Origin: Desulfobacterales bacterium
GTDB lineage: Bacteria > Desulfobacterota > Desulfobacteria > Desulfobacterales > UBA11574
Reading direction: 5' to 3'
Assembly: GCA_035529735.1 (NCBI GenBank)
Contig: DATKWE010000114.1
Span: 2,528 to 66,527 of the forward strand
Length of the DNA: 64,000 nt
The translations under genes were made by a program, and so were the position numbers. Within the stretch, counting starts at the first letter, position 1; each line of letters starts with the position of its first letter. The notes beneath the pieces are model-generated. The model saw nothing but the letters and a program-made list of their open reading frames with translations, was not told the origin of the DNA and did no database searches. Positions 25,336 to 38,042 of the stretch are shown here, piece after piece.

Positions 25336-28300
25336 TTACATGAACAGTGCACTTTTGATCTGGGCATACAGTTGATTGTTGTCAAACCCCATCAAAGCCG
25401 GCGCTTCGGACGGACACACCGCCGAGCAGGCGCCGCACCCTTTGCACAGGGCCGGATTCACTTCAGCCACAAACGCTTCACTGTTAAACGTAATGGCGCC
25501 AAACGGACAGACATTGATGCACCCCAAACATCCGGAACATAACTCGGGTCGGATATGCGTGATGATACCGCCCAGTTTGACGTATTTCATCGCCAGAACC
25601 GTAACCGCTCTTGCGGCTGCGGCCTGAGCCTGTGTGATGGATTCATCGATGGTCTTGGGGGCGTGGGCCAGCCCGCACACAAAAACGCCGTCCGTGGCAA
25701 AATCCACCGGCCGAAGCTTCACGTGGGCTTCGGCAAAAAAACCGTCGGCATTCAAAGGCACCTTATAAAGCTGTGCCAAAGGATTCTCTGATTCCGTTAC
25801 AATCGCCGACGCCAGAACCAACAGATCGGGATGGATGTCCATCATCCTTCCCAGAACCCGGTCGGTGAAACTCACCTTGAGGCCTTCGTCCCCATTGGTA
25901 ACATTAACATCCTTATCAGCATCGTACCGGATAAAACCGATGCCTCGAGATCGGGCTTCGCGATAGAGATCCTCGCGCAGACCATACGAACGCAAATCCC
26001 TGTAAAGGATAAAAACGTCCATGCCGGGGTTGATCTCTTTCAGGTTCAAAGCACTTTTGATGGATTGGGTGCAGCATACTTTTGAACAGTAGGGCCGATC
26101 CGGTATGCGGGAACCGACACACTGGATAAATACCGCCGTGTTGACTTGGGCAATCGATGGATCGTTGCCAATAAACCGCTGCTGCAACTCCAAACCGGTA
26201 ACGACCCGGGAATCTTGCCCGTATAAATATTGGTCGGGTTTAAACTCCGAAGCCCCTGAAGCGATAAGGGTTACGCCGTGCTCAAGAACCCTGCTATTGC
26301 CGTTGCCGGTGACGGTTGTCTTAAAATTCCCCACAAACCCGTCAACCTGCGTAATGCGAGAATTCAGAAAAATATCAATGGCCGGATCGGACTCCACCGC
26401 ATCGGTCAAGCCTTTTAAATATTCCTGAATATCCTCGCCGCGCCAGGTTTCATGAAGATTCCGCGCCTGGCCGCCGAGAACATCCGATTTTTCAAGCAAA
26501 AATGTCTGATACCCTTGATCCGACATGTTTTTGGCCGCAGCCATCCCGGCGACGCCGCCCCCGATCACCAGAACCGCCTGGTTGACCGCCATGGTCGATT
26601 CTGCCAGGGGCTGGAGTAGAGCCGCTTTGGCCACGCCCATTCTGACCATATCTTTGGATTTTTTCGTGGCTTCTTCAGGATCGTTTTTATGGACCCAGGA
26701 GCACTGGTTGCGGATGTTGGCCATTTCGAACAGGTACTTGTTGACCCCCGCATTGATTAAAGTCTCCTGAAAAAGGGGCTCATGGGTCTTGGGTGTGCAG
26801 GCGGCAACAACCACTCGATTCAGCCGATGCTCTCTGATGACCTCCGTCATTTTCTCCTGGGTGTCCTGGGAGCAGCTGAACATATTTTCCTCCACATAGG
26901 CGACACCGGGCAGGGTCTTTGCAAATTCCACCACTTCGGGAACATCGACGGTCCCCGCGATATTGGTACCGCACCGACACACAAAAACACCGATTCGGGG
27001 CGCCTCACCCCGCACATCCGTCTCTTCCGGAACTTCTTTTGTCTTTGTGAGGGTCCACCGAGACTCGGCCAAACGGCTGCCTGCCACACCCGCAGCAGCA
27101 CTGGAATCGATCACCGAAGACGGAATATCCTTGGGTGCCTGAAAAGCACCACAAACATATACCCCGGACCTGGAGGTCTCAACCGGATCAAAACTGCTGG
27201 TACGGGCAAAGTTGTAATGATCCAGATCGATGCCCCATTTTTTGGCCTGCTCCGCCGTTTTCATGGACGCCGTCAGACCGATTGACAGGACCACCATGTC
27301 AAATTCTTCTTCCACACGCCGGCCGGCCTCGTCCACATATCGGATAAGCTGCATCCCCGACGCTTCATCATGGACAATATTGGTAACCTTTGACTTGACG
27401 AACCGAACACCATGTTCATCCTTGGCGCGGTTGTAGTATCTTTCAAAGTCTTTCCCATAGGTGCGAATATCAATATAGAAAATGGCGGCGTCCAGACCTT
27501 TTTCGCTGTGCTCTTTGGCCAGCATGGCCTCCTTGATGGCATAGGTGCAGCATATCCCGGAGCAGTATCCTTTTGCACCCAGATGGACGTCCCTGGAGCC
27601 GATGCACTGCAACCAGGCGATCTTCTTCGGCTCTTTATGATCCGAAGGGCGTATTAGATGACCGCCAAAGGGCCCCGAAGCGGATAGTATCCTTTCGAAT
27701 TCCAGGGAAGTCACCACATTGGGCTGCTGGGTATAATTAAAGGTGTCGTGCTCTGCAGGATCATACGGTTCGGAACCGGGCGCAAAAATGACGGATCCGA
27801 CCTTAATGTCGACGATTTCATCTTCTTGAGTATGGTCGATGGCATCAACGCCGCAGAACTCCGCACATATCTTACAGCCGCCGGTTTTAAAATGCACGCA
27901 TTGGGTACGATCGATAACCGGCGTATTGGGGACTGCCTGGGCGTACGACACATAGATCGGCTTGCGGCCTTTAAGACCCATCTCGTATTCGGATGGGATC
28001 GGTCTTACATCATCTTTGGAAATGTGGGCTTGAATTTTTTCAAAGGTAATATGCCCGGTGGGACAAACCGAAACACAGGCACCACAGGATAAGCATGCTT
28101 CCGTCTGGATATGGAACGGCGTGTCCACTTTCATGTCCACACCCCTTCCGGTCAGACTGATGGCGCTGTTTCCCATTCTCTCGCAGATTCGGGTGCACAG
28201 TCCGCAAAGGATACAGGTGTCGTCTTCTTTGCTAAAACGAGGCTCTTTGATGTCGTATTTCTCAGCCAGTTCTTTAAGAATTTTCACGTCCGGACATCGG

Positions 28301-28581
28301 GCATACAGCAATTCAATAATAAGTTTGCGAATCTGGTGAATCGCCTCGGTATCGGTTTTTATCTCCATGCCTTCCCAGATCGGGTAGTTGCATGCGGTAA
28401 CGTATCGAACACGTCCACCGAAATGCATTTCCACTGTGCAAAGACGGCACATGCCGGCCGGTTCGAGAGCTTTGTGATGGCAAAGGGTCGGGATTTCAAT
28501 TCCATTTTCTTCAGCAACCTGAAGGAGATATTGGTCTTTCTTTCCCCGGACTTCTTTACCGTTGAGTTTAAAACTGATCAT
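25336..28581 (-). CDS. fusion protein: NuoG-like N-terminus ([2Fe-2S] plus [4Fe-4S]) + C-terminal part of one HdrA module + a complete second HdrA module
   Basis: 1081 aa, with these segments in order:
- CHHKALEPAGMCRLC (2Fe-2S) and two CxxCxxCxxxCP motifs
- KIAWLQCIGSRD...CSGICC
- RIGVFVCRCGTNIAG
- VLVIGGGVAGMAAA
- AVFIQCVGSR...CSKVCC
- a C-terminal 2x[4Fe-4S] ferredoxin. Confidence 0.8.
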   Translation of the reverse strand: MISFKLNGKEVRGKKDQYLLQVAEENGIEIPTLCHHKALEPAGMCRLCTVEMHFGGRVRYVTACNYPIWEGMEIKTDTEAIHQIRKLIIELLYARCPDVKILKELAEKYDIKEPRFSKEDDTCILCGLCTRICERMGNSAISLTGRGVDMKVDTPFHIQTEACLSCGACVSVCPTGHITFEKIQAHISKDDVRPIPSEYEMGLKGRKPIYVSYAQAVPNTPVIDRTQCVHFKTGGCKICAEFCGVDAIDHTQEDEIVDIKVGSVIFAPGSEPYDPAEHDTFNYTQQPNVVTSLEFERILSASGPFGGHLIRPSDHKEPKKIAWLQCIGSRDVHLGAKGYCSGICCTYAIKEAMLAKEHSEKGLDAAIFYIDIRTYGKDFERYYNRAKDEHGVRFVKSKVTNIVHDEASGMQLIRYVDEAGRRVEEEFDMVVLSIGLTASMKTAEQAKKWGIDLDHYNFARTSSFDPVETSRSGVYVCGAFQAPKDIPSSVIDSSAAAGVAGSRLAESRWTLTKTKEVPEETDVRGEAPRIGVFVCRCGTNIAGTVDVPEVVEFAKTLPGVAYVEENMFSCSQDTQEKMTEVIREHRLNRVVVAACTPKTHEPLFQETLINAGVNKYLFEMANIRNQCSWVHKNDPEEATKKSKDMVRMGVAKAALLQPLAESTMAVNQAVLVIGGGVAGMAAAKNMSDQGYQTFLLEKSDVLGGQARNLHETWRGEDIQEYLKGLTDAVESDPAIDIFLNSRITQVDGFVGNFKTTVTGNGNSRVLEHGVTLIASGASEFKPDQYLYGQDSRVVTGLELQQRFIGNDPSIAQVNTAVFIQCVGSRIPDRPYCSKVCCTQSIKSALNLKEINPGMDVFILYRDLRSYGLREDLYREARSRGIGFIRYDADKDVNVTNGDEGLKVSFTDRVLGRMMDIHPDLLVLASAIVTESENPLAQLYKVPLNADGFFAEAHVKLRPVDFATDGVFVCGLAHAPKTIDESITQAQAAAARAVTVLAMKYVKLGGIITHIRPELCSGCLGCINVCPFGAITFNSEAFVAEVNPALCKGCGACSAVCPSEAPALMGFDNNQLYAQIKSALFM

Positions 28582-28624: not shown

Positions 28625-30529
28625 CTATTTAATGACGACGGCATTAAACTTACAAGCTTCATAGCAGATGCTGCATTTGATGCATTTCTCCTGATCCAGC
28701 ACGTGAGGCTCTTTTTTCTCGCCGGTGATCGCCTCTTGAGGGCACTTGAGGGCGCACAATCGGCAACCGGTACAGGCTTCCGGATCAATCTCGTAATAAA
28801 AGAGATTTTTACATACACCGGCCGGACATTTTTTATCTTTGATGTGGGCGTCGTACTCGTTACGGAAATAATTAATGGTCGTCACCACCGGATTGGGGGC
28901 CGAAGTCCCTAACCCGCACAGGGATGCTTTGGCGACCATATCGCCCAGTTCTTCAAGGAGTTCGACGTCGCCCTCTGCTCCGTGTCCTTCACAAATGCGG
29001 GTCAAAATTTGCAGCATTCGTTTGATTCCCTCCCGGCAGGGATTGCATTGACCGCAGGACTCCTCTTTCAGAAAATCCAAAAAGTATCGGGCCACATCCA
29101 CCATACAGGTGTCCTGATCCATAACGATCATACCGCCGGAACCCATGATGGAGCCAATTTTTGTCAGTTCATCAAAATCGACGCCCAAATCCAAGTACTT
29201 TTCAGGAATACATCCGCCGGAAGGACCTCCGGTTTGAACGGCTTTGAATTTTTTCTTTTTTAGAACACCGCCGCCGATATCATAAATAATATTCCGCAAT
29301 GTCGTTCCCATGGCGACTTCCACCAGACCGGTATTTTTTATCTTACCGACAAGGCTGAAAACCTTGGTGCCTTTACTGCTTTCCGTCCCCATGCCGGCGT
29401 ACCAATCGGCCCCCTTAGAGATGATGGCCGGAACATTGGCAAAGGTTTCCACATTATTTAGATTTGAAGGATTTTGTCTGAAACCTTTTTCCACTGTATG
29501 CACATATTTGGCCCTGGGCCGGCCCACTTGGCCTTCCAGAGAGGCCATCAGTGCGGTTGACTCACCACAGACAAAAGCACCGGCGCCGGTTGAAATTTTA
29601 ATATTAAAACTAAAATCGGTACCACCGATATTCTCGCCCAAGAGGCCATATTTTTCAGCCTGTTTTATGGCGGTTACCAGACGTTTTACGGCCAGCGGGT
29701 ATTCATTGCGAACATACATAAAACCATGATTGGAACCGATGGCCACGGCTGCGATTAACATCCCTTCCAAGACACTGTGGGGGTCTCCTTCCAGAATGCT
29801 CCGGTCCATATAGGCTCCGGGATCGCCTTCATCTGCATTACAAATAATATATCTTTCGCCGTGATGTCTGGCACACGTCGCCCATTTAACGCCGGTGGAA
29901 AATCCGCCGCCGCCGCGGCCCCTTAAGCCCGAATCTTTAATTATTTGAATAATCTCTTCAGGCTTATGATCCAAGAGCGCACGAAAAAGGGCAAAATACC
30001 CCCCCCGGGCGATATACTCCTCAATGCTATCCGGATCGATATAGCCGCAGTTACGCAACGCAACTTTCACCTGATTGTTATAAAAAGACGTATCTTCTAA
30101 AAACGGAATCTTCTCTATGGGCTCGATTCCCCCGAGAGGATTCTCAAGATGGTCTTCCAATACACTGCGGGGATCACGAACCTGCCCTAAGATCCATTTG
30201 GTTTTTTTGAAATCGTTTTCAAGATAACTGCGAATAACATCGACAATCTTATCTTGGGTGATTTTTTGATAAATAACCCTGGGTTTGCCGGTTTCAGCAA
30301 TTTCGACCAAAGGTTCAACTTCACAAAAACCGATGCAACCCGTCTGTCTGATTTGGACGCCATTTCCATCGGGAAACTCCTGTATGGCCTTTTCAAACGC
30401 AGCCTTACCACCGGCCGCAATACCGCAGGATGCCATTCCGACGAGAACTTTGGTCGTATCGGGATAATAAAGTCTAGTGCTGTATTCCTGACGAATCTTT
30501 TCTAACTCTTCCGTAGATTGGATTTTCAT
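28625..30529 (-). CDS. NuoF-like FMN/NAD(H)-binding subunit (HydB/Bfu-type), with an N-terminal thioredoxin-like domain and a C-terminal 2x[4Fe-4S]
   Basis: 634 aa with GRGGGGFSTGVKW, ESCGQCNPCREG and C-terminal CTGCRLCALKCP / CIKCSICYEAC. Confidence 0.85.
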   Translation of the reverse strand: MKIQSTEELEKIRQEYSTRLYYPDTTKVLVGMASCGIAAGGKAAFEKAIQEFPDGNGVQIRQTGCIGFCEVEPLVEIAETGKPRVIYQKITQDKIVDVIRSYLENDFKKTKWILGQVRDPRSVLEDHLENPLGGIEPIEKIPFLEDTSFYNNQVKVALRNCGYIDPDSIEEYIARGGYFALFRALLDHKPEEIIQIIKDSGLRGRGGGGFSTGVKWATCARHHGERYIICNADEGDPGAYMDRSILEGDPHSVLEGMLIAAVAIGSNHGFMYVRNEYPLAVKRLVTAIKQAEKYGLLGENIGGTDFSFNIKISTGAGAFVCGESTALMASLEGQVGRPRAKYVHTVEKGFRQNPSNLNNVETFANVPAIISKGADWYAGMGTESSKGTKVFSLVGKIKNTGLVEVAMGTTLRNIIYDIGGGVLKKKKFKAVQTGGPSGGCIPEKYLDLGVDFDELTKIGSIMGSGGMIVMDQDTCMVDVARYFLDFLKEESCGQCNPCREGIKRMLQILTRICEGHGAEGDVELLEELGDMVAKASLCGLGTSAPNPVVTTINYFRNEYDAHIKDKKCPAGVCKNLFYYEIDPEACTGCRLCALKCPQEAITGEKKEPHVLDQEKCIKCSICYEACKFNAVVIK

Positions 30530-30552: not shown

Positions 30553-31056
30553 TTATTCGTAATTTTCCAAGATTTTTTCAACTTTATCCGCACCGATTCG
30601 ACCGTAAATGTCTTCGTTAACCTTCAGGACCGGCCCCAGGCTGCAGCAACCGATGCAACGCACACCTTCGAGGGTAAACCGCATGTCATCCGTGGTATGC
30701 TTGCCGTCGAGGTTTAAAGTATCCTCAATTCTTTCACGTACCCTTTCACCGCCTCTGACGTGACAGGCAGTGCCCAAGCAGATGGAAATAATGTTTCGGC
30801 CTTTGGGTTCAAGACTAAACGTGGCGTAAAATGTGCCGACACCGTAGATCTGGCTGTAAGGAACGTTTATTTTTTCTGAAAGATATTTTAAGGTGGGCTG
30901 GGGAAGGTGGTTGTAACGCTTTTGAATCGCCTGGAGGATCATAATCAAGTTTTCTTTGTCATTGTCAAACTCTTGTTCGATGATCTTGTCGAGTTCCAGG
31001 TAATCGATTTCTACTTCGGCACACGGTTCTGTTGTTGATGGACTTACTTTATTCAT
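30553..31056 (-). CDS. NuoE-like [2Fe-2S] thioredoxin-fold subunit (HydC/Bfu-type)
   Basis: CLGTACHVRGG...CIGCCSLGPV. Probable ATG at 31056 after AGGA; the ORF is open from a TTG at 31065. Confidence 0.8.
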   Translation of the reverse strand: MNKVSPSTTEPCAEVEIDYLELDKIIEQEFDNDKENLIMILQAIQKRYNHLPQPTLKYLSEKINVPYSQIYGVGTFYATFSLEPKGRNIISICLGTACHVRGGERVRERIEDTLNLDGKHTTDDMRFTLEGVRCIGCCSLGPVLKVNEDIYGRIGADKVEKILENYE

Positions 31057-31080
31057 TCGCAACAATCCTTATCACAATGG

Positions 31081-31476
31081 TTATGCTTGATCAGCAGACA
31101 TTGGGCAGTAGATGACCGGACAGTTTTCCACGCAACTGCCGCACCCGGTACAACGGTCCATATTGATACTGCGCGCTCGCTTTCTGACTCTCACCGTGAG
31201 GTTTCCTTCCTCGCCGGAAATATCTTCCACTTCTGAGAGGGTGATTAATTCGATGTTGATGTGCCGGCCGACCTCGACCAGTTTGGGCGAGATAATTCAC
31301 ATGGCACAGTCATTGGTTGGGAAGGTCTTGTCAAGCTGCGCCATCATCCCGCCGATAGCCCCGGACTTTTCAACGAGGTAGACATAAAAACCGGCATTGG
31401 CCAGATCCAGAGCCGACTGCATTCCGGCGATGCCACCGCCAACCACCATTACGGCACCTGTTTTTTTATTCGACAT
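31081..31476 (-). CDS. HdrA N-terminal fragment (FAD Rossmann fold plus the first half of the inserted ferredoxin), with selenocysteine at the in-frame TGA 31297-31299
   Basis: AGGAG-N6-ATG at 31476. Read-through product of 131 aa: [131 protein letters not shown]. HdrA-like sequence continues in frame after the TGA. Confidence 0.7.
31264..31281 (-). promoter_or_regulatory. candidate bacterial SECIS hairpin
   Basis: CUGGUCG-AGGU-CGGCCGG: a 7-bp stem including G-U pairs, with a GGU-containing apical loop. It begins 15 nt 3' of the UGA. Confidence 0.5.
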
Positions 31477-32353
31477 TTTCTGCTCCTGTATTAAAAAAAG
31501 AAGTGATATTCGTGATATCAAGCTGGTTCATATCGATTCCCAACGTCTTTTCATCGATACCCATACACAGACCGAGGAGCTGTGGATAAATAATTGAGGC
31601 AAGGGCTTCATTGCCAGTTTGGGAGATCATCATTTTCTGCACCGTATCAAATTGCAAATGACACCACGGACAGGCGGCGCACAGATAATCGGCGCCGGCT
31701 TTCTTTCCATTGGCCAGTTTCTTTTCGGTTAAATTCATTGAAAGATCATCGTTCACACCCATTACCGGGGCACCGCAACATTCCAGCTTGCTGAGATAGT
31801 CCACGCTTTCGGCCCCCGTGACCTCCACGAGCTTGTCAAATATAGACGGGGCAACCGGATCATCAAACTGAGTAACATCGCTGGGGCGAAGGGCATGACA
31901 TCCATAGTGGGTGGCAATTTTGAGTCCTTTATAGGCGTTGGAGATATTGCGCTCTAGGGTATCCAGCCCCACATCATGATAGAGCACTGAAAGAAAATGC
32001 TTCACCTCGGCGTTGCCTTCATACCGCATGCCTTTTTCTGCAAGCAATTTTTTGATCTCTTCCTGAAGATCTCCGTCTTCCTTCAAGAAGTGTTCCGCTT
32101 CCTTCAGGCTGCCAAAGCAACATTTACACAGGGTCATTATATTGAGCCCGAATTTTTCGGCCCACGCCAGATTTTCCGATGCAGACAGGAGAAATGCCTT
32201 TTGGTCAAAATTGCGAACCGGATATCCACAGCATTTAAAATCCCGGATATCGACAAGCTGAATACCCACCTGCCGCATAACCGCCCGGGCAGCGGTTTCA
32301 AACTGAACGACCCTGGCGGGTATATTACATCCCAAAAATAATGCATATTTCAT
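31466..32353 (-). CDS. HdrB-like CCG-domain subunit
   Basis: 295 aa with two CCG motifs (KCCGYPV, ECCGAPV). Overlaps the next gene's start by 11 nt. Confidence 0.8.
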
Positions 32354-32389: not shown

Positions 32390-34171
32390 TCAAACTGCTT
32401 CTGAGACAGCCGTGTCGTCTTCTGAAGGTTTGCGCGCATTTTCAACGGCAAGATTTTTTAATTGATATAAAATATCCGTCACCTTCACATTCTGGGGGCA
32501 GTGCTCCTGACATTGATAACAGGTCACACAATCCCAAATCATCCGCGGACCGGTTGCCATTTCAGTCAGACCCAATCCGAGACAGTTCATAATCTGATGC
32601 GGCAGAAGGCCCAGAACCTCCTGAGGATTGTCGTAGTTGATCACCACGGGACACACCGTGGTGCAGTTCTGACATCCAAAGCAATAGGAAAATGTAACGG
32701 CACCCGGAAGTCGATTCACAAGGTTGCTTTCACGGTCTTTAAGCGAGATGGGTGTGCTCTTGTCCATGACCTTCTCGAAATTGCCGGCAACAACCCGGCT
32801 TGCGTGTTCAACGGGCCTTCGATAATCATCTTCGGCGATATTCTCCCGATTCAGCGCGCGACTGAAGGAAAACGGACTCAGCGTCAAGAGTTCCGGGACC
32901 CCTTTTTGAACCAAATCCTCCCTCACATTGAACCACAACGCTTTAAGATTGATTCCGGACGGACAGACCACCGTGCATCGATCACAATTGGTGCACAAAT
33001 AAACCCCCTCCTGAATGGCGCGTAATTTCTCATGGCTCAGGTCTTTTCCTTTGGCTAGTGTTTTCAGAAACGTCATCTTCTCTGAAGGGAGTATGTATTC
33101 ATTGCCCAGGACATCAAAAGCCGTGGAGGCAGAGCATCGCAGGCTGCAGGTGCCGCAATGGGTACAGGCATCCAATTCCATGGCCTGTCTTGTGGCGATA
33201 TTTATTGGGTCTGATCGTTCCGTGTCCATGACCGCATTGGCCAGAAGACTTACGGGCGTCGCTATGATATGGAACATCTTGGAAAACGGGAGATAGGCCA
33301 AACCGATAAAGCATGCCAGGAAATGGATATACCAGAGGATATTCGAGGTCCCCGCACGATCAAGGCCCAGGGCCACCGGTGTGATGATTTTGGCAAACGT
33401 ATAGCCTGTAAAAGCCCATTTGGGCGAAGAATGGCATTCTGCACAGTTGGCTTCGTGGCTTTCCATGCCCTGTTCCAAAATCTCCTCTTCAAAAGGCCCT
33501 TCGACATTCGGGGAGACAACGTCAAAATTTTTAACCCAATAGCTTTCAAGGGCCGCTATTTCCTCTGCATCATCCTCTTCCGTGAGACCGGCATAATCGG
33601 TCACCATATCCTGAAATTCAGTATGAGATGTAATTTTAGCCCCTTCCAGCATGATGCCGGAAAACATAATGACCACCAGAATAAGGATTGCATAGTGATC
33701 CATGGCGTTGGTTTTAAGGCGGGGGACTTTAAAAATGAACCGGCGGAGTACAGCTATAGCGATACCTATAATCACCATCAAGCCGAAAAAATCCCTCAAA
33801 AACATAAATGGATTGACGGTTGAATAGTAATCGGAAAACAGTTTTGCAGTGATAAAGTTTTCCAGGGCATGCATCAGGAGCAGGAGCATAAATCCGGCGT
33901 ATATGAGCATGTGCATCAGCCAGCGTGTAAAATCTTCTTTCAAAATCCTTCGTTGCAAAACAACATCGAGGATAAATACTTTCACCAAGATCAAGATTTT
34001 TGAGCTGAAAACAACACGGGCGATTCCTTTGACGGATGCGGACAAACGCTGGGAGGGTGTATAATCCCGGGCTGAAATACCGATTTTCATCGAACACCAC
34101 GTATAAAACTTGTAAATCAGACCCAGGGCGAAAATAATAAGTGAAATATAAAGAAGCGTATTAAAAACCAT
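32390..34171 (-). CDS. membrane-anchored fusion: NarI/HdrE/DsrM-like multi-TM domain + two HdrC-like 2x[4Fe-4S] ferredoxin domains
   Basis: About 5-6 predicted TM helices in the first 320 aa, followed by CTHCGTCSLRC, CTNCDRCTVVCP, CFGCQNCTTVCP and CVTCYQCQEHCP. GGAGG-N7-ATG at 34171; the ORF track starts at a TTG at 34186. Confidence 0.7.
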   Translation of the reverse strand: MVFNTLLYISLIIFALGLIYKFYTWCSMKIGISARDYTPSQRLSASVKGIARVVFSSKILILVKVFILDVVLQRRILKEDFTRWLMHMLIYAGFMLLLLMHALENFITAKLFSDYYSTVNPFMFLRDFFGLMVIIGIAIAVLRRFIFKVPRLKTNAMDHYAILILVVIMFSGIMLEGAKITSHTEFQDMVTDYAGLTEEDDAEEIAALESYWVKNFDVVSPNVEGPFEEEILEQGMESHEANCAECHSSPKWAFTGYTFAKIITPVALGLDRAGTSNILWYIHFLACFIGLAYLPFSKMFHIIATPVSLLANAVMDTERSDPINIATRQAMELDACTHCGTCSLRCSASTAFDVLGNEYILPSEKMTFLKTLAKGKDLSHEKLRAIQEGVYLCTNCDRCTVVCPSGINLKALWFNVREDLVQKGVPELLTLSPFSFSRALNRENIAEDDYRRPVEHASRVVAGNFEKVMDKSTPISLKDRESNLVNRLPGAVTFSYCFGCQNCTTVCPVVINYDNPQEVLGLLPHQIMNCLGLGLTEMATGPRMIWDCVTCYQCQEHCPQNVKVTDILYQLKNLAVENARKPSEDDTAVSEAV

Positions 34172-34288
34172 ATGGAAGACCTCCAAAATTTAGCTAAAAG
34201 AATCGATTGCTCTAACTCTGATTTTTCATGGAGTTGAATTTGCTTCTGTAACGACCGATTAAATTAAAATCGACTTCCAAAGCAATTT

Positions 34289-34317: not shown

Positions 34318-34462
34318 ATAATAATTGATGAATTTGTTACAGATATTGTCGCGCCGTTAAATGGTTGAGCTGTTAAGCCATTGATATCATGTTAATATAT
34401 TGATTTTTAATGGAATTTTGACATTCATCGTCTTGAAGAATATCCCACAATGAATTATCGAC

Positions 34463-34661
34463 AAATATTCCCCGAATCAATTGTTTGACCATTCAACTGT
34501 TTGACGATGGCGGCAATGAACGACCCCGAAGCAGGCTGAAAGGGGGTCCCAAATCGGTCAATAAATATTCCCCGAATCAACTGTTTCCCGTTCAACTGTT
34601 TGACCATGGCGGTAATGAACGACCCCGAAGCAGGCTGAAAGGGGGTCCCAAATCGGTCAAT
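34463..34661. repeat. tandem direct repeat, 2 units (100 bp + 99 bp, about 93 percent identical)
   Basis: Read directly. Each unit holds two copies of TCAAYTGTTTGAC-like 13-mers and a GACCCC(N14)GGGGTC hairpin. Confidence 0.9.
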
Positions 34662-34705
34662 TTGTATTCCATCGACGCAAGATCCGGGCGAAAAACCCAT
34701 CCAAA

Positions 34706-36620: not shown

Positions 36621-38042
36621 ATGAACCTAACAGAAAAACAGCAGACCCTTTTGCGAATGCTTCCCGCAGTGGATTACATCCTTGAGCTGGCAAAGGCAGA
36701 TTCTTTGTTCGACAATGTCCCAAAATCTGTTCTGGTTCGCTCCATCCGCTCTGTTGTTGAAAATCTTCGGATGATTATCCTAGAGGCCCCACAGGATCTC
36801 ACACAGACAGACCTGTCCGACGCCAACATCCTTAAAAAGATCAAAAACAGTGTCAAAAGAGCCATGACGCCGATGCTTACCCGGGTCATCAACGCCACGG
36901 GCGTTGTGGTACATACCAACCTCGGCCGATCGTTACTTTCGGACGATGCGGTGCAGAACCTTCTGTCCATTGCATCCGGGTATTCCAATTTGGAATTCGA
37001 TCTATCAAAAGGGATGCGAGGTTCCAGATACAGCATTGTTGAAGATATTCTGTGTGAAATAAGCGGCGCTGAAGCGGCCATGGTGGTCAACAACAATGCC
37101 GGAGCCGTCTTTCTATCTTTAGAAACCCTCGCCAAAGATAAAAAAGTGATTGTTTCCAGGGGAGAACTGGTGGAAATCGGGGGGTCATTCAGGATCCCCG
37201 ATGTCATGGCCAAAAGCGGCGGGATATTGAGGGAGGTAGGGACCACAAACCGTACGCACCTTAAAGACTATGAAAATGCCATCGAGCACGATACCGCCCT
37301 TCTCTTAAAAGTCCACAAAAGCAATTACAGTGTCGTCGGCTTTACCGCCGAAGTCTCTCTTGAAGCGCTGGTTGCTCTGGGCGCAAAATATAAGATCCCG
37401 GTTATGGAAGATCTCGGCAGCGGAACCTTTGTAGATTTTTCAAAGTACGGTCTGTTAAAGGAGCCCACGGTTCAGGAATCTGTTAAAGCAGGCGCAGACA
37501 TTATCACGTTCAGTGGAGACAAGCTCCTTGGCGGACCCCAGGCAGGCATCATTTTAGGCAAAAATGACCTCCTTATGAAAATCAAAGAAAATCCCATTAA
37601 CCGGGCGCTTCGTATCGACAAACTGACCCTTGCAGCACTCGAAAGCACCTTGCGGCATTACAGAAACATAGACAGGGAAATGGATTCCATTCCAACACTG
37701 CGCATGTTGACCCTTTCTTTGGCGCATATTGAATCAAAAGCAAAAACACTTGCCAAGATGCTCGAAAATATCAGCGATACCCGATTGTCTGTAGATCTCA
37801 TCGACACATCCTCGAGACCCGGCGGCGGTTCTCTCCCGCTTTTAACACTCCCCAGCAAAGGTGTGGGCGTCAAGGTCCGGGGAATCTCTGCCAATGCGGT
37901 GGAAGAACAGATGCGGAACCATGAACTCCCCATCATTGGAAGGATCGAAGAAGATCTCTTTATCATGGATCTTAGAACCATACTTGATGACGAACTGCCG
38001 ATCATCCAACATGCTGTTGAACACATGCTGAAAAAGGCCTGA
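36621..38042 (+). CDS. selA: L-seryl-tRNA(Sec) selenium transferase
   Basis: 473 aa with the PLP-lysine motif FSGDKLLGGPQAGII and a SelA-like N-terminus. Confidence 0.9.
   Translation: MNLTEKQQTLLRMLPAVDYILELAKADSLFDNVPKSVLVRSIRSVVENLRMIILEAPQDLTQTDLSDANILKKIKNSVKRAMTPMLTRVINATGVVVHTNLGRSLLSDDAVQNLLSIASGYSNLEFDLSKGMRGSRYSIVEDILCEISGAEAAMVVNNNAGAVFLSLETLAKDKKVIVSRGELVEIGGSFRIPDVMAKSGGILREVGTTNRTHLKDYENAIEHDTALLLKVHKSNYSVVGFTAEVSLEALVALGAKYKIPVMEDLGSGTFVDFSKYGLLKEPTVQESVKAGADIITFSGDKLLGGPQAGIILGKNDLLMKIKENPINRALRIDKLTLAALESTLRHYRNIDREMDSIPTLRMLTLSLAHIESKAKTLAKMLENISDTRLSVDLIDTSSRPGGGSLPLLTLPSKGVGVKVRGISANAVEEQMRNHELPIIGRIEEDLFIMDLRTILDDELPIIQHAVEHMLKKA

Follow-up and report, generated by a model that had tools for sequence, protein, structure and literature searches.

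In a 64,000-nucleotide (nt) stretch of DNA from a Desulfobacterales bacterium (assembly GCA_035529735.1, contig DATKWE010000114.1, positions 2,528 to 66,527; the whole stretch is called the window in the following) we identified what is very probably a single gene encoding a selenoprotein of 131 residues, which makes up the N-terminal part of a split flavoprotein of the HdrA type. Its only in-frame UGA appears to be decoded as selenocysteine (Sec) by means of a hairpin that follows within the reading frame, and we put the probability of this reading at about 0.9. The elements concerned, all on the minus strand, are these:

31081..31476, minus strand: putative selenoprotein gene of 131 codons with Sec as codon 60, followed by TAA at 31083-31081 (from the translation, the HdrA2 profile, the match to 5ODC and homologues of the same length)
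31297..31299, minus strand: UGA probably read as selenocysteine, residue 60, aligned with HdrA Cys197 and Methanococcus maripaludis Sec197, with Cys57 as CxxU partner; TGA kept in 70 distinct homologues
31264..31281, minus strand: candidate selenocysteine insertion sequence (SECIS) hairpin CUGGUCG-AGGU-CGGCCGG, 15 nt past the UGA, with a 7-bp stem (31281-31275 with 31270-31264) and the loop AGGU (31274-31271)
31483..31487, minus strand: Shine-Dalgarno sequence AGGAG, 6-nt spacer to ATG 31476 (read from the sequence)

Results and Discussion

Read directly, the open reading frame (ORF) 31476..31081 holds one in-frame TGA only, at 31299-31297, and is continuous from ATG 31476 to TAA 31083-31081, as had been claimed in a preliminary description of this DNA, which took it for an HdrA fragment split by a UGA. 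The mechanical ORF list contains a 74-residue piece up to the TGA, an in-frame piece of 49 residues and an out-of-frame GTG ORF at 31091..31300; the ORF stopping at 31297-31299 and the GTG ORF are the two that had been pointed out there. The start at 31476 had been proposed because of its good Shine-Dalgarno sequence, which is indeed seen at 31487-31483, and this ATG overlaps the upstream hdrB-like gene, lying 11 nt within its 3' end. A scan of the window for ORF pairs joined by a TGA gave 40 mechanical candidates, and a credible protein context was found for the 31476..31081 gene only. Without the Sec reading this gene would be annotated as two meaningless stubs or as a pseudogene.

For profile and structure-sequence searches a Cys was put in at the TGA of the 131-residue sequence. 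Residues 8-122 match positions 141-256 of the 777 positions of the NCBIfam profile HdrA2 (E = 8e-47), and residues 8-121 align with residues 145-258 of HdrA in the structure 5ODC (E = 6e-41). As these matches lie on both sides of the TGA the homology runs through it, which supports the earlier claim that the sequence past the TGA continues as HdrA does after its FPTxDCxMC motif. The TGA aligns with Cys197 of 5ODC HdrA, the second Cys of FPTNDCxxC, and Cys57 has Cys194 as its counterpart, so that the UGA takes the place of the second Cys of the CxxC pair, also as supposed. The product covers the N-terminal part, binding flavin adenine dinucleotide (FAD), of the thioredoxin-reductase-like domain of HdrA together with the first CxxCxxCxxxCP motif of the inserted ferredoxin domain; it carries a GGGxAG dinucleotide fold for FAD, the FPTNDC57-x-x-U60 pair and this one invariant Cys motif. 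Two features of the HdrA family are therefore present, namely homology on both sides of the UGA and a UGA on the conserved Cys of the Cys-type homologues, and the complete domain set in one polypeptide is absent, the product spanning HdrA 145-258 only. Judged by its sequence, the 131-residue protein is a split member of the family and not a stand-alone HdrA.

Thousands of relatives came up in a database search. Among the best 120 a length of 122-166 residues prevails, and many homologues of 122-145 residues share the endpoint of the 131-residue product; the 26 short homologues that were aligned all end 5-30 residues past the CP motif. In this alignment, which the preliminary description had suggested as a check, the Sec column is Cys except in the five closest sequences, one of which has an 'R' and four a 'W'. 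The 'W' proteins (P0002, P0003, P0005 and P0019) are the closest metagenomic relatives and stand in the databases with this residue at the Sec position. The DNA of one of them was checked (P0002, locus L082) and the codon is TGA, so the gene caller had applied another genetic code. The 'R' protein (P0001, a metagenomic homologue of 90% identity) has AGA (Arg) at the Sec codon (L081, 472-474) with the exact SECIS hairpin intact; we attribute this to a sequencing or assembly error, the contig being of low coverage, or else to a very recent mutation, inactivating or variant. We also compared 80 genome loci (L numbers), mostly from metagenome-assembled genomes (MAGs) and isolates of Desulfobacterota. 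The codon at the Sec site is TGA in most of the HdrA-like genes found and TGC or TGT in the remainder, these two together in 25 sequences, and all Cys-type short forms have their Cys at the UGA column.

Conservation of the hairpin

The hairpin (31281-31264), already described as a 7-bp stem with a GGU-containing loop 15 nt past the UGA, is present in the minimum free energy (MFE) fold with an energy of -10.2 kcal/mol when taken alone, and two pairs of its stem are G-U. To assess its conservation, 70 distinct TGA homologues from other genomes were compared with 25 Cys-codon homologues. The exact sequence CTGGTCGAGGTCGGCCGG stands at +18..+35 in 63 of the TGA sequences. The full stem of 7 pairs persists in 65/70 TGA homologues vs 1/25 Cys-codon homologues, and the loop AGGU is unaltered in the 64/70 TGA homologues that retain the consensus stem pairs. 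Among the TGA sequences the mean pairwise nucleotide identity reaches 95% over the 18-nt hairpin compared with 56% over the next 36 nt, and the third positions of the six hairpin codons have an entropy of 0.26 bit, compared with 1.57 for 18 further codons downstream (Mann-Whitney p = 1.8e-4). No such difference exists in the 25 Cys-codon genes, where the corresponding values are 1.46 in the hairpin codons and 1.42 in the flanking ones (p = 0.62). Three Cys-codon genes that encode the identical peptide KLVEVGRH (L018, L033 and L062) use different codons for it; the hairpin is mostly or wholly lost in L033 and L062 and retained in a weakened form in L018 (-9.6 kcal/mol). As the synonymous freezing is found in the TGA genes only and the Cys genes use other codons, the constraint acts on the RNA and is tied to the UGA. 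Three TGA sequences (L026, L032 and L039) have single changes from C-G to U-G and from G-C to G-U that preserve pairing. The hairpin structure is backed by conservation and not by covariation.

Bacterial SECIS elements are modelled as stem-loops within the ORF just past the UGA, with 3-9 nt in the loop and 4-16 bp in the upper stem, a G at loop position 1 or 2 that is usually followed by G or U, a distance of 16-37 nt from UGA to loop and an MFE <= -7.5 kcal/mol (PMC13188914). The hairpin agrees with this model throughout, having a 4-nt loop A-G-G-U, a 7-bp stem, 15+7 = 22 nt to the loop and -10.2 kcal/mol, and its synonymous constraint is specific to the UGA-containing orthologues. It resembles the E. 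coli fdhF type and the bSECISearch consensus in being an in-ORF hairpin just past the UGA with G-G in a small loop, a 7-bp upper stem and the 22-nt distance; unlike the fdhF element, with which it shares no sequence, it has no bulged U that we could identify. These comparisons support the view that the hairpin behaves as a SECIS, and binding by SelB is predicted. In a paralogue group of ~510 residues with KMLDVGRH (L023, L035 and L052) the downstream sequence is different and the hairpin less clear. A TGA followed after 15 nt by CTGGTCGAGGTCGGCCGG is a simple, highly specific marker of Sec-HdrA genes in Desulfobacterota.

Genomic context

The Sec gene lies in an operon in the order HdrC-like protein with a weak NarI-like segment, HdrB-like protein, Sec piece, HydC-like protein, HydB-like protein and fusion protein, flanked by pyrF and a gene of the amidohydrolase family. 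The other genes of the operon and the selA gene are:

32390..34186, minus strand: protein with a weak NarI-like (nitrate reductase gamma) N-terminal segment and two HdrC/QmoC-like [4Fe-4S] dicluster domains (Pfam Fer4_8/Fer4_9/Nitrate_red_gam; NCBIfam qmoC, HdrC)
31466..32353, minus strand: HdrB-like subunit with two CCG domains (PF02754; TIGR03288, 261 bits)
30553..31065, minus strand: NuoE/HydC-like [2Fe-2S] subunit, 170 residues (PF01257, E = 4e-46)
28625..30529, minus strand: NuoF/HydB-like flavin mononucleotide (FMN) subunit of the bifurcating (Bfu) type, 634 residues, with extra N- and C-terminal Fe-S domains (structure-chain matches; Pfam)
25336..28581, minus strand: fusion protein of 1081 residues made up of a NuoG-like domain, the rest of HdrA unit 1 and a second HdrA unit
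36621..38042, plus strand: selA, L-seryl-tRNA(Sec) selenium transferase (TIGR00474, 613 bits, cut-off 268; PF03841)

The selA gene is thus where the preliminary description had placed it, 5 kb from the Sec gene. In the protein encoded at 32390..34186 no stretch passes the Nitrate_red_gam model by itself and the NCBIfam qmoC and HdrC matches are below their curated cut-offs; from its domains this protein would likely be a link to the quinone pool. The nuoE-like gene likely starts at ATG 31056 with AAGGA 9 nt upstream. The 634-residue protein gives ~700 bits to HydB, NfnB and NiFe-HydB chains over most or all of its length, compared to ~340 bits to NuoF of complex I over residues 166-565 only. 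Hence both parts expected of a Bfu enzyme are found, an FMN subunit of the HydB type with extra Fe-S domains and a [2Fe-2S] subunit of the HydC type, and by sequence similarity a HydA/NuoG-like N-terminus is located on the fusion protein.

The fusion protein supplies what the Sec piece lacks. Its residues 1-180 form a domain like NuoG and the N-terminus of HydA with one [2Fe-2S] and two [4Fe-4S] clusters, residues 194-507 are the rest of HdrA unit 1 (aligned with 5ODC 259-568) and residues 526-1081 are the second HdrA unit, in which the N-terminal cluster domain is present and the Cys194/Cys197 pair is missing. Here residues 526-757 align with HdrA 2-235, and LHETWRGEDIQEY stands at the place of the Cys-pair segment of HdrA. 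The remainder of the thioredoxin-reductase-like domain is found in the fusion protein, including a Lys aligned with HdrA Lys409, as is a C-x8-C-x2-C-x3-C motif. Three ferredoxin-type Cys motifs precede the thioredoxin-reductase-like part (residues 113-167 and 227-245), and the short protein holds the fourth. The first unit therefore has the Cys pair without the N-terminal domain and the second unit the reverse, a pattern known from fused HdrA proteins (PMC9012536) and from the BamE-type protein of class II benzoyl-CoA reductase (preprint cited below).

Unsplit relatives of 1004-1014 residues with TGA and hairpin occur in Desulfoluna spongiiphila (L046), in a MAG of Desulfosudis oleivorans (L014) and in L008. 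The short protein covers residues 1-120 of these homologues and the fusion protein the part from about residue 100 to their C-terminus. L006 and L008 have the same HdrC-like and HdrB-like genes upstream; a nuoE- or nuoF-like gene was not found in either locus, the contig of L006 ending inside hdrA. L002-L004, with Sec, and L076, from a Dehalococcoidia MAG, with Cys, have the same split operon, complete with nuoE, nuoF and the NuoG-like fusion. L001 has Sec, the split and the nuoE/nuoF-like genes on a contig that ends before the fusion gene, and L081 shows the split piece, a nuoE-like gene and only the start of the next ORF. As the split recurs with the same genes across loci, it is a real and conserved architecture. 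The simplest explanation is the insertion of a HydBC-type cassette into a BamE-like double HdrA, at a point inside its inserted ferredoxin domain.

Among the compared loci L001, an uncultured deltaproteobacterial MAG, is the closest genome, with 90-92% DNA identity to the window from 39564 down to 31109, that is from selA through the Sec gene. This similarity stops just before the stop codon of the Sec gene (window 31109 on the minus strand, L001 8368). The nuoE-like gene of L001 gives no DNA alignment and shares 44% amino acid identity, and the nuoF-like gene aligns in part with 76% DNA identity (49% amino acid identity overall). This suggests that the HydBC-type cassette may have been exchanged by recombination exactly at the split point; alternatively, the MAG contig could be chimeric.

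Further observations concern the neighbourhood of the operon and its relatives. An intergenic tandem duplication of ~99 nt lies at 34458-34670 of the window, some 270-480 nt ahead of the first gene of the operon, and its two copies, 93% identical, each contain the inverted repeat GACCCC...GGGGTC. It looks recent because L001 has only one stretch to which the segment aligns two times; it matched nothing in Rfam, and further copies were found neither in the window nor in the compared loci. Two HdrA-like TGA genes lie within 16 kb of each other in many Desulfobacterota loci, namely L002, L013, L020, L022, L023, L027, L028, L035, L052, L063 and L078, where the HdrA-like TGA genes have forms of ~1010, ~1480 and ~510 residues. 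In L014 (11544-14446) genes with Fer4_22, NAD_binding_1 and DHODB_Fe-S_bind domains come after the unsplit Sec double HdrA; these genes may form a different, Flx-like input module for NAD(P)H. If this is true, one HdrA core is combined with different NAD(H) modules across lineages.

Alternative explanations

The TGA might be a nonsense mutation in a decaying pseudogene, which would then make a stub of at most 59 residues. ORF callers do stop at it, and the AGA in the close metagenomic relative L081 shows that the position can mutate, but the TGA is found at exactly the same codon in 70 distinct sequences from many genera, the downstream frames are intact and conserved, the 71 downstream codons retain the invariant Fe-S Cys residues and the hairpin is kept in the TGA genes only, all of which makes a pseudogene extremely unlikely. 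Reading the TGA as a sense codon for Trp or Gly (code 4 or 25) would agree with the W given for P0002, P0003, P0005 and P0019. Against it, the column is Cys and not Trp or Gly in the homologues, and 12 of the 38 long ORFs in the window end in TGA, nusA, truB and selA among them; several of these TGA-ended ORFs are matched by their family profiles to the very end. As TGA is an ordinary stop for so many ORFs a reassigned code is excluded, and we see practically no chance for a sense codon. The conservation of the 18 nt could also reflect a protein or codon-usage constraint on LVEVGR instead of one on the RNA, any readthrough being independent of the hairpin. The peptide KLVEVGRH is itself conserved and compensatory double substitutions are missing, yet the identical peptide is encoded with different codons in the Cys-type loci L018, L033 and L062 and the entropy falls to 0.26 inside the segment in the TGA genes only (Cys genes 1.46 vs 1.42), and we therefore judge this explanation to be very unlikely. 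That the split is an assembly or frameshift artefact of one long hdrA gene might be thought in view of the unsplit homologues of 1004-1014 residues. The split is nevertheless accompanied by nuoE/nuoF-like genes in the independent assemblies L001-L004, L076 and L081 (in L081 nuoE-like only) and by the fusion gene in L002-L004 and L076, the inserted genes are intact and of full length, and both the lengths of the best 120 homologues and the common end of the 26 aligned ones past the CP motif fit a separate short protein. The probability of such an artefact is close to nil.

Some results nonetheless weigh against a Sec-containing piece of a split HdrA as proposed here. Besides selA no gene of the Sec machinery was found within the 64-kb window, neither selB and selD among the ORFs scanned nor selC (tRNA-Sec). 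The stability of a single-sequence fold of the 63-nt segment is unremarkable (z = -0.77), and as this score is insignificant we relied on the comparative data, which we regard as decisive. Covariation was sought among the TGA sequences and no double compensatory changes were seen, the stem being nearly invariant, and Rfam searches at gathering and permissive thresholds gave no SECIS family and noise matches only. Regarding the split, the best alignment of the fusion protein (to 5ODC) begins at HdrA 259, and other alignments bridge back over an 18-residue gap; some of them set the fusion motif CLSCGACVSVCP on the first ferredoxin motif of HdrA, which is the one we assign to the Sec piece. Finally, the FAD site and ferredoxin domain assembled in trans as well as the chemistry of the Cys/Sec pair are what we infer from the arrangement of the domains.

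Comparison with known systems

The gene belongs to the known Sec-HdrA family, which is familiar from sulfate reducers and has been well documented in bacteria since 2006, and the textbook picture is unchanged. HdrA is among the commonest bacterial selenoprotein families, with multiple copies in Syntrophobacter, Syntrophus and Desulfobacterium (PMC1794560, PMC2702500, PMC5109826). The Sec-HdrA of methanococci and Desulfobacterium that the preliminary description mentioned is documented in Methanococcus (PMC13518236) and in D. autotrophicum, Syntrophobacter and other Deltaproteobacteria (PMC2702500, PMC1794560). With HdrA from M. maripaludis (Sec197) and the Cys forms such as 5ODC, 8RVU and 7BKB the protein shares the same thioredoxin-reductase-like segment, the FPTNDCxxC/U motif and the place of the UGA at residue 197. 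In contrast, archaeal HdrA is one chain of ~650 residues with an archaeal SECIS in the 3' untranslated region, whereas the gene described here is bacterial, has its hairpin within the ORF and encodes the equivalent of HdrA 145-258 only. The Sec-HdrA/HdrL proteins of Deltaproteobacteria such as Desulfobacterium autotrophicum HRM2, Syntrophobacter fumaroxidans and Desulfococcus multivorans are of the same family, and ORF callers typically split them at the UGA. Those described mostly adjoin mvhD, hydrogenase or fdh genes, unlike the hydC/hydB-like genes found here. That hdrA occurs in split and fused arrangements, one of them 'hdrA_N-unknown-hdrA_C', was noted in 2006 (PMC2702500, PMC1794560, PMC5109826), and nuoEFG beside hdrA is known in Desulfobacteraceae (PMC4046663). 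In the literature examined we found no description of a 131-residue Sec piece parted from its other half by hydC/hydB-like genes with a NuoG-like fusion, although the review of HdrA modules by Appel et al. 2021 may cover the split; this review aside, we also found no description of the near-absolute conservation of the 18-nt SECIS core.

The closest parallel in architecture is BamE of the BamBCDEFGHI complex of Geobacter metallireducens, likewise a fused double HdrA with the Cys pair in the first unit only (Cys59-Cys62 there, C57/U60 here) and coupled to a HydBC-like BamGH(I) module and to the HdrBC-like BamD (bioRxiv 10.64898/2026.04.10.717634). It differs from the system described here, where Sec replaces Cys, the NuoG-like domain is fused into the HdrA chain and the HdrC-like subunit carries the weak NarI-like N-terminal segment. 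A class II benzoyl-CoA reductase itself was rejected, as neither the tungsten-containing aldehyde oxidoreductase module BamB/BamC nor an MvhD-like BamF had a match among the window ORFs scanned.

Working model

Following the established bacterial mechanism, the ribosome would meet the UGA at codon 60, the hairpin 15 nt downstream would recruit SelB.GTP.Sec-tRNA(Sec) and selenocysteine would be put in instead of termination. The 131- and the 1081-residue polypeptides, neither of which should be functional alone, would then jointly form the FAD site of unit 1 and its two-cluster ferredoxin domain. In HdrA, Cys197 is a ligand given by one protomer to the N-terminal [4Fe-4S] cluster of its partner, and tandem or fused HdrAs show a complementary pattern of Cys197 and N-terminal domain (PMC9012536) which is the same as here. 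The C57/U60 pair would accordingly be expected between the flavin and the N-terminal [4Fe-4S] cluster of the second HdrA unit, and may act as cluster ligand and/or as a redox-active selenenylsulfide relay, as proposed for M. maripaludis Sec197 and BamE Cys59-Cys62. For M. maripaludis, cryo-EM density of Sec197-Cys between cluster A3 and FAD was read as a selenylsulfide relay with the exact role left open (PMC13518236), and a disulfide between Cys59 and Cys62 is seen in Geobacter BamE in one of its conformational states (bioRxiv 10.64898/2026.04.10.717634).

The operon would couple NAD(H) and ferredoxin to a high-potential acceptor; that this acceptor is the quinone pool is a guess from the domains. 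Coupling of two electron-bifurcation modules has so far been reported for class II benzoyl-CoA reductase only. Tentatively, and with rather less than an even chance of being right in all its parts, we propose that the 131-residue selenoprotein could be the obligate half of a flavin site and ferredoxin domain made from two polypeptides, which would have arisen when a HydBC-type (Bfu) NADH/ferredoxin module with a NuoG-like domain came to lie in a BamE-like double HdrA, inside its inserted ferredoxin domain. In that case the product of the operon would be a second kind of enzyme that couples two electron-bifurcation modules, without tungsten enzyme or MvhD adaptor, possibly linked to the membrane and with a Cys-x-x-Sec relay beside the bifurcating flavin.

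Conclusion

The split architecture is the more interesting part of this finding. In the split operon a HydBC-type module would be wired directly into the HdrA chain, and its short selenoprotein would offer a natural, separable 14-kDa handle on the residue at the Cys197 position.

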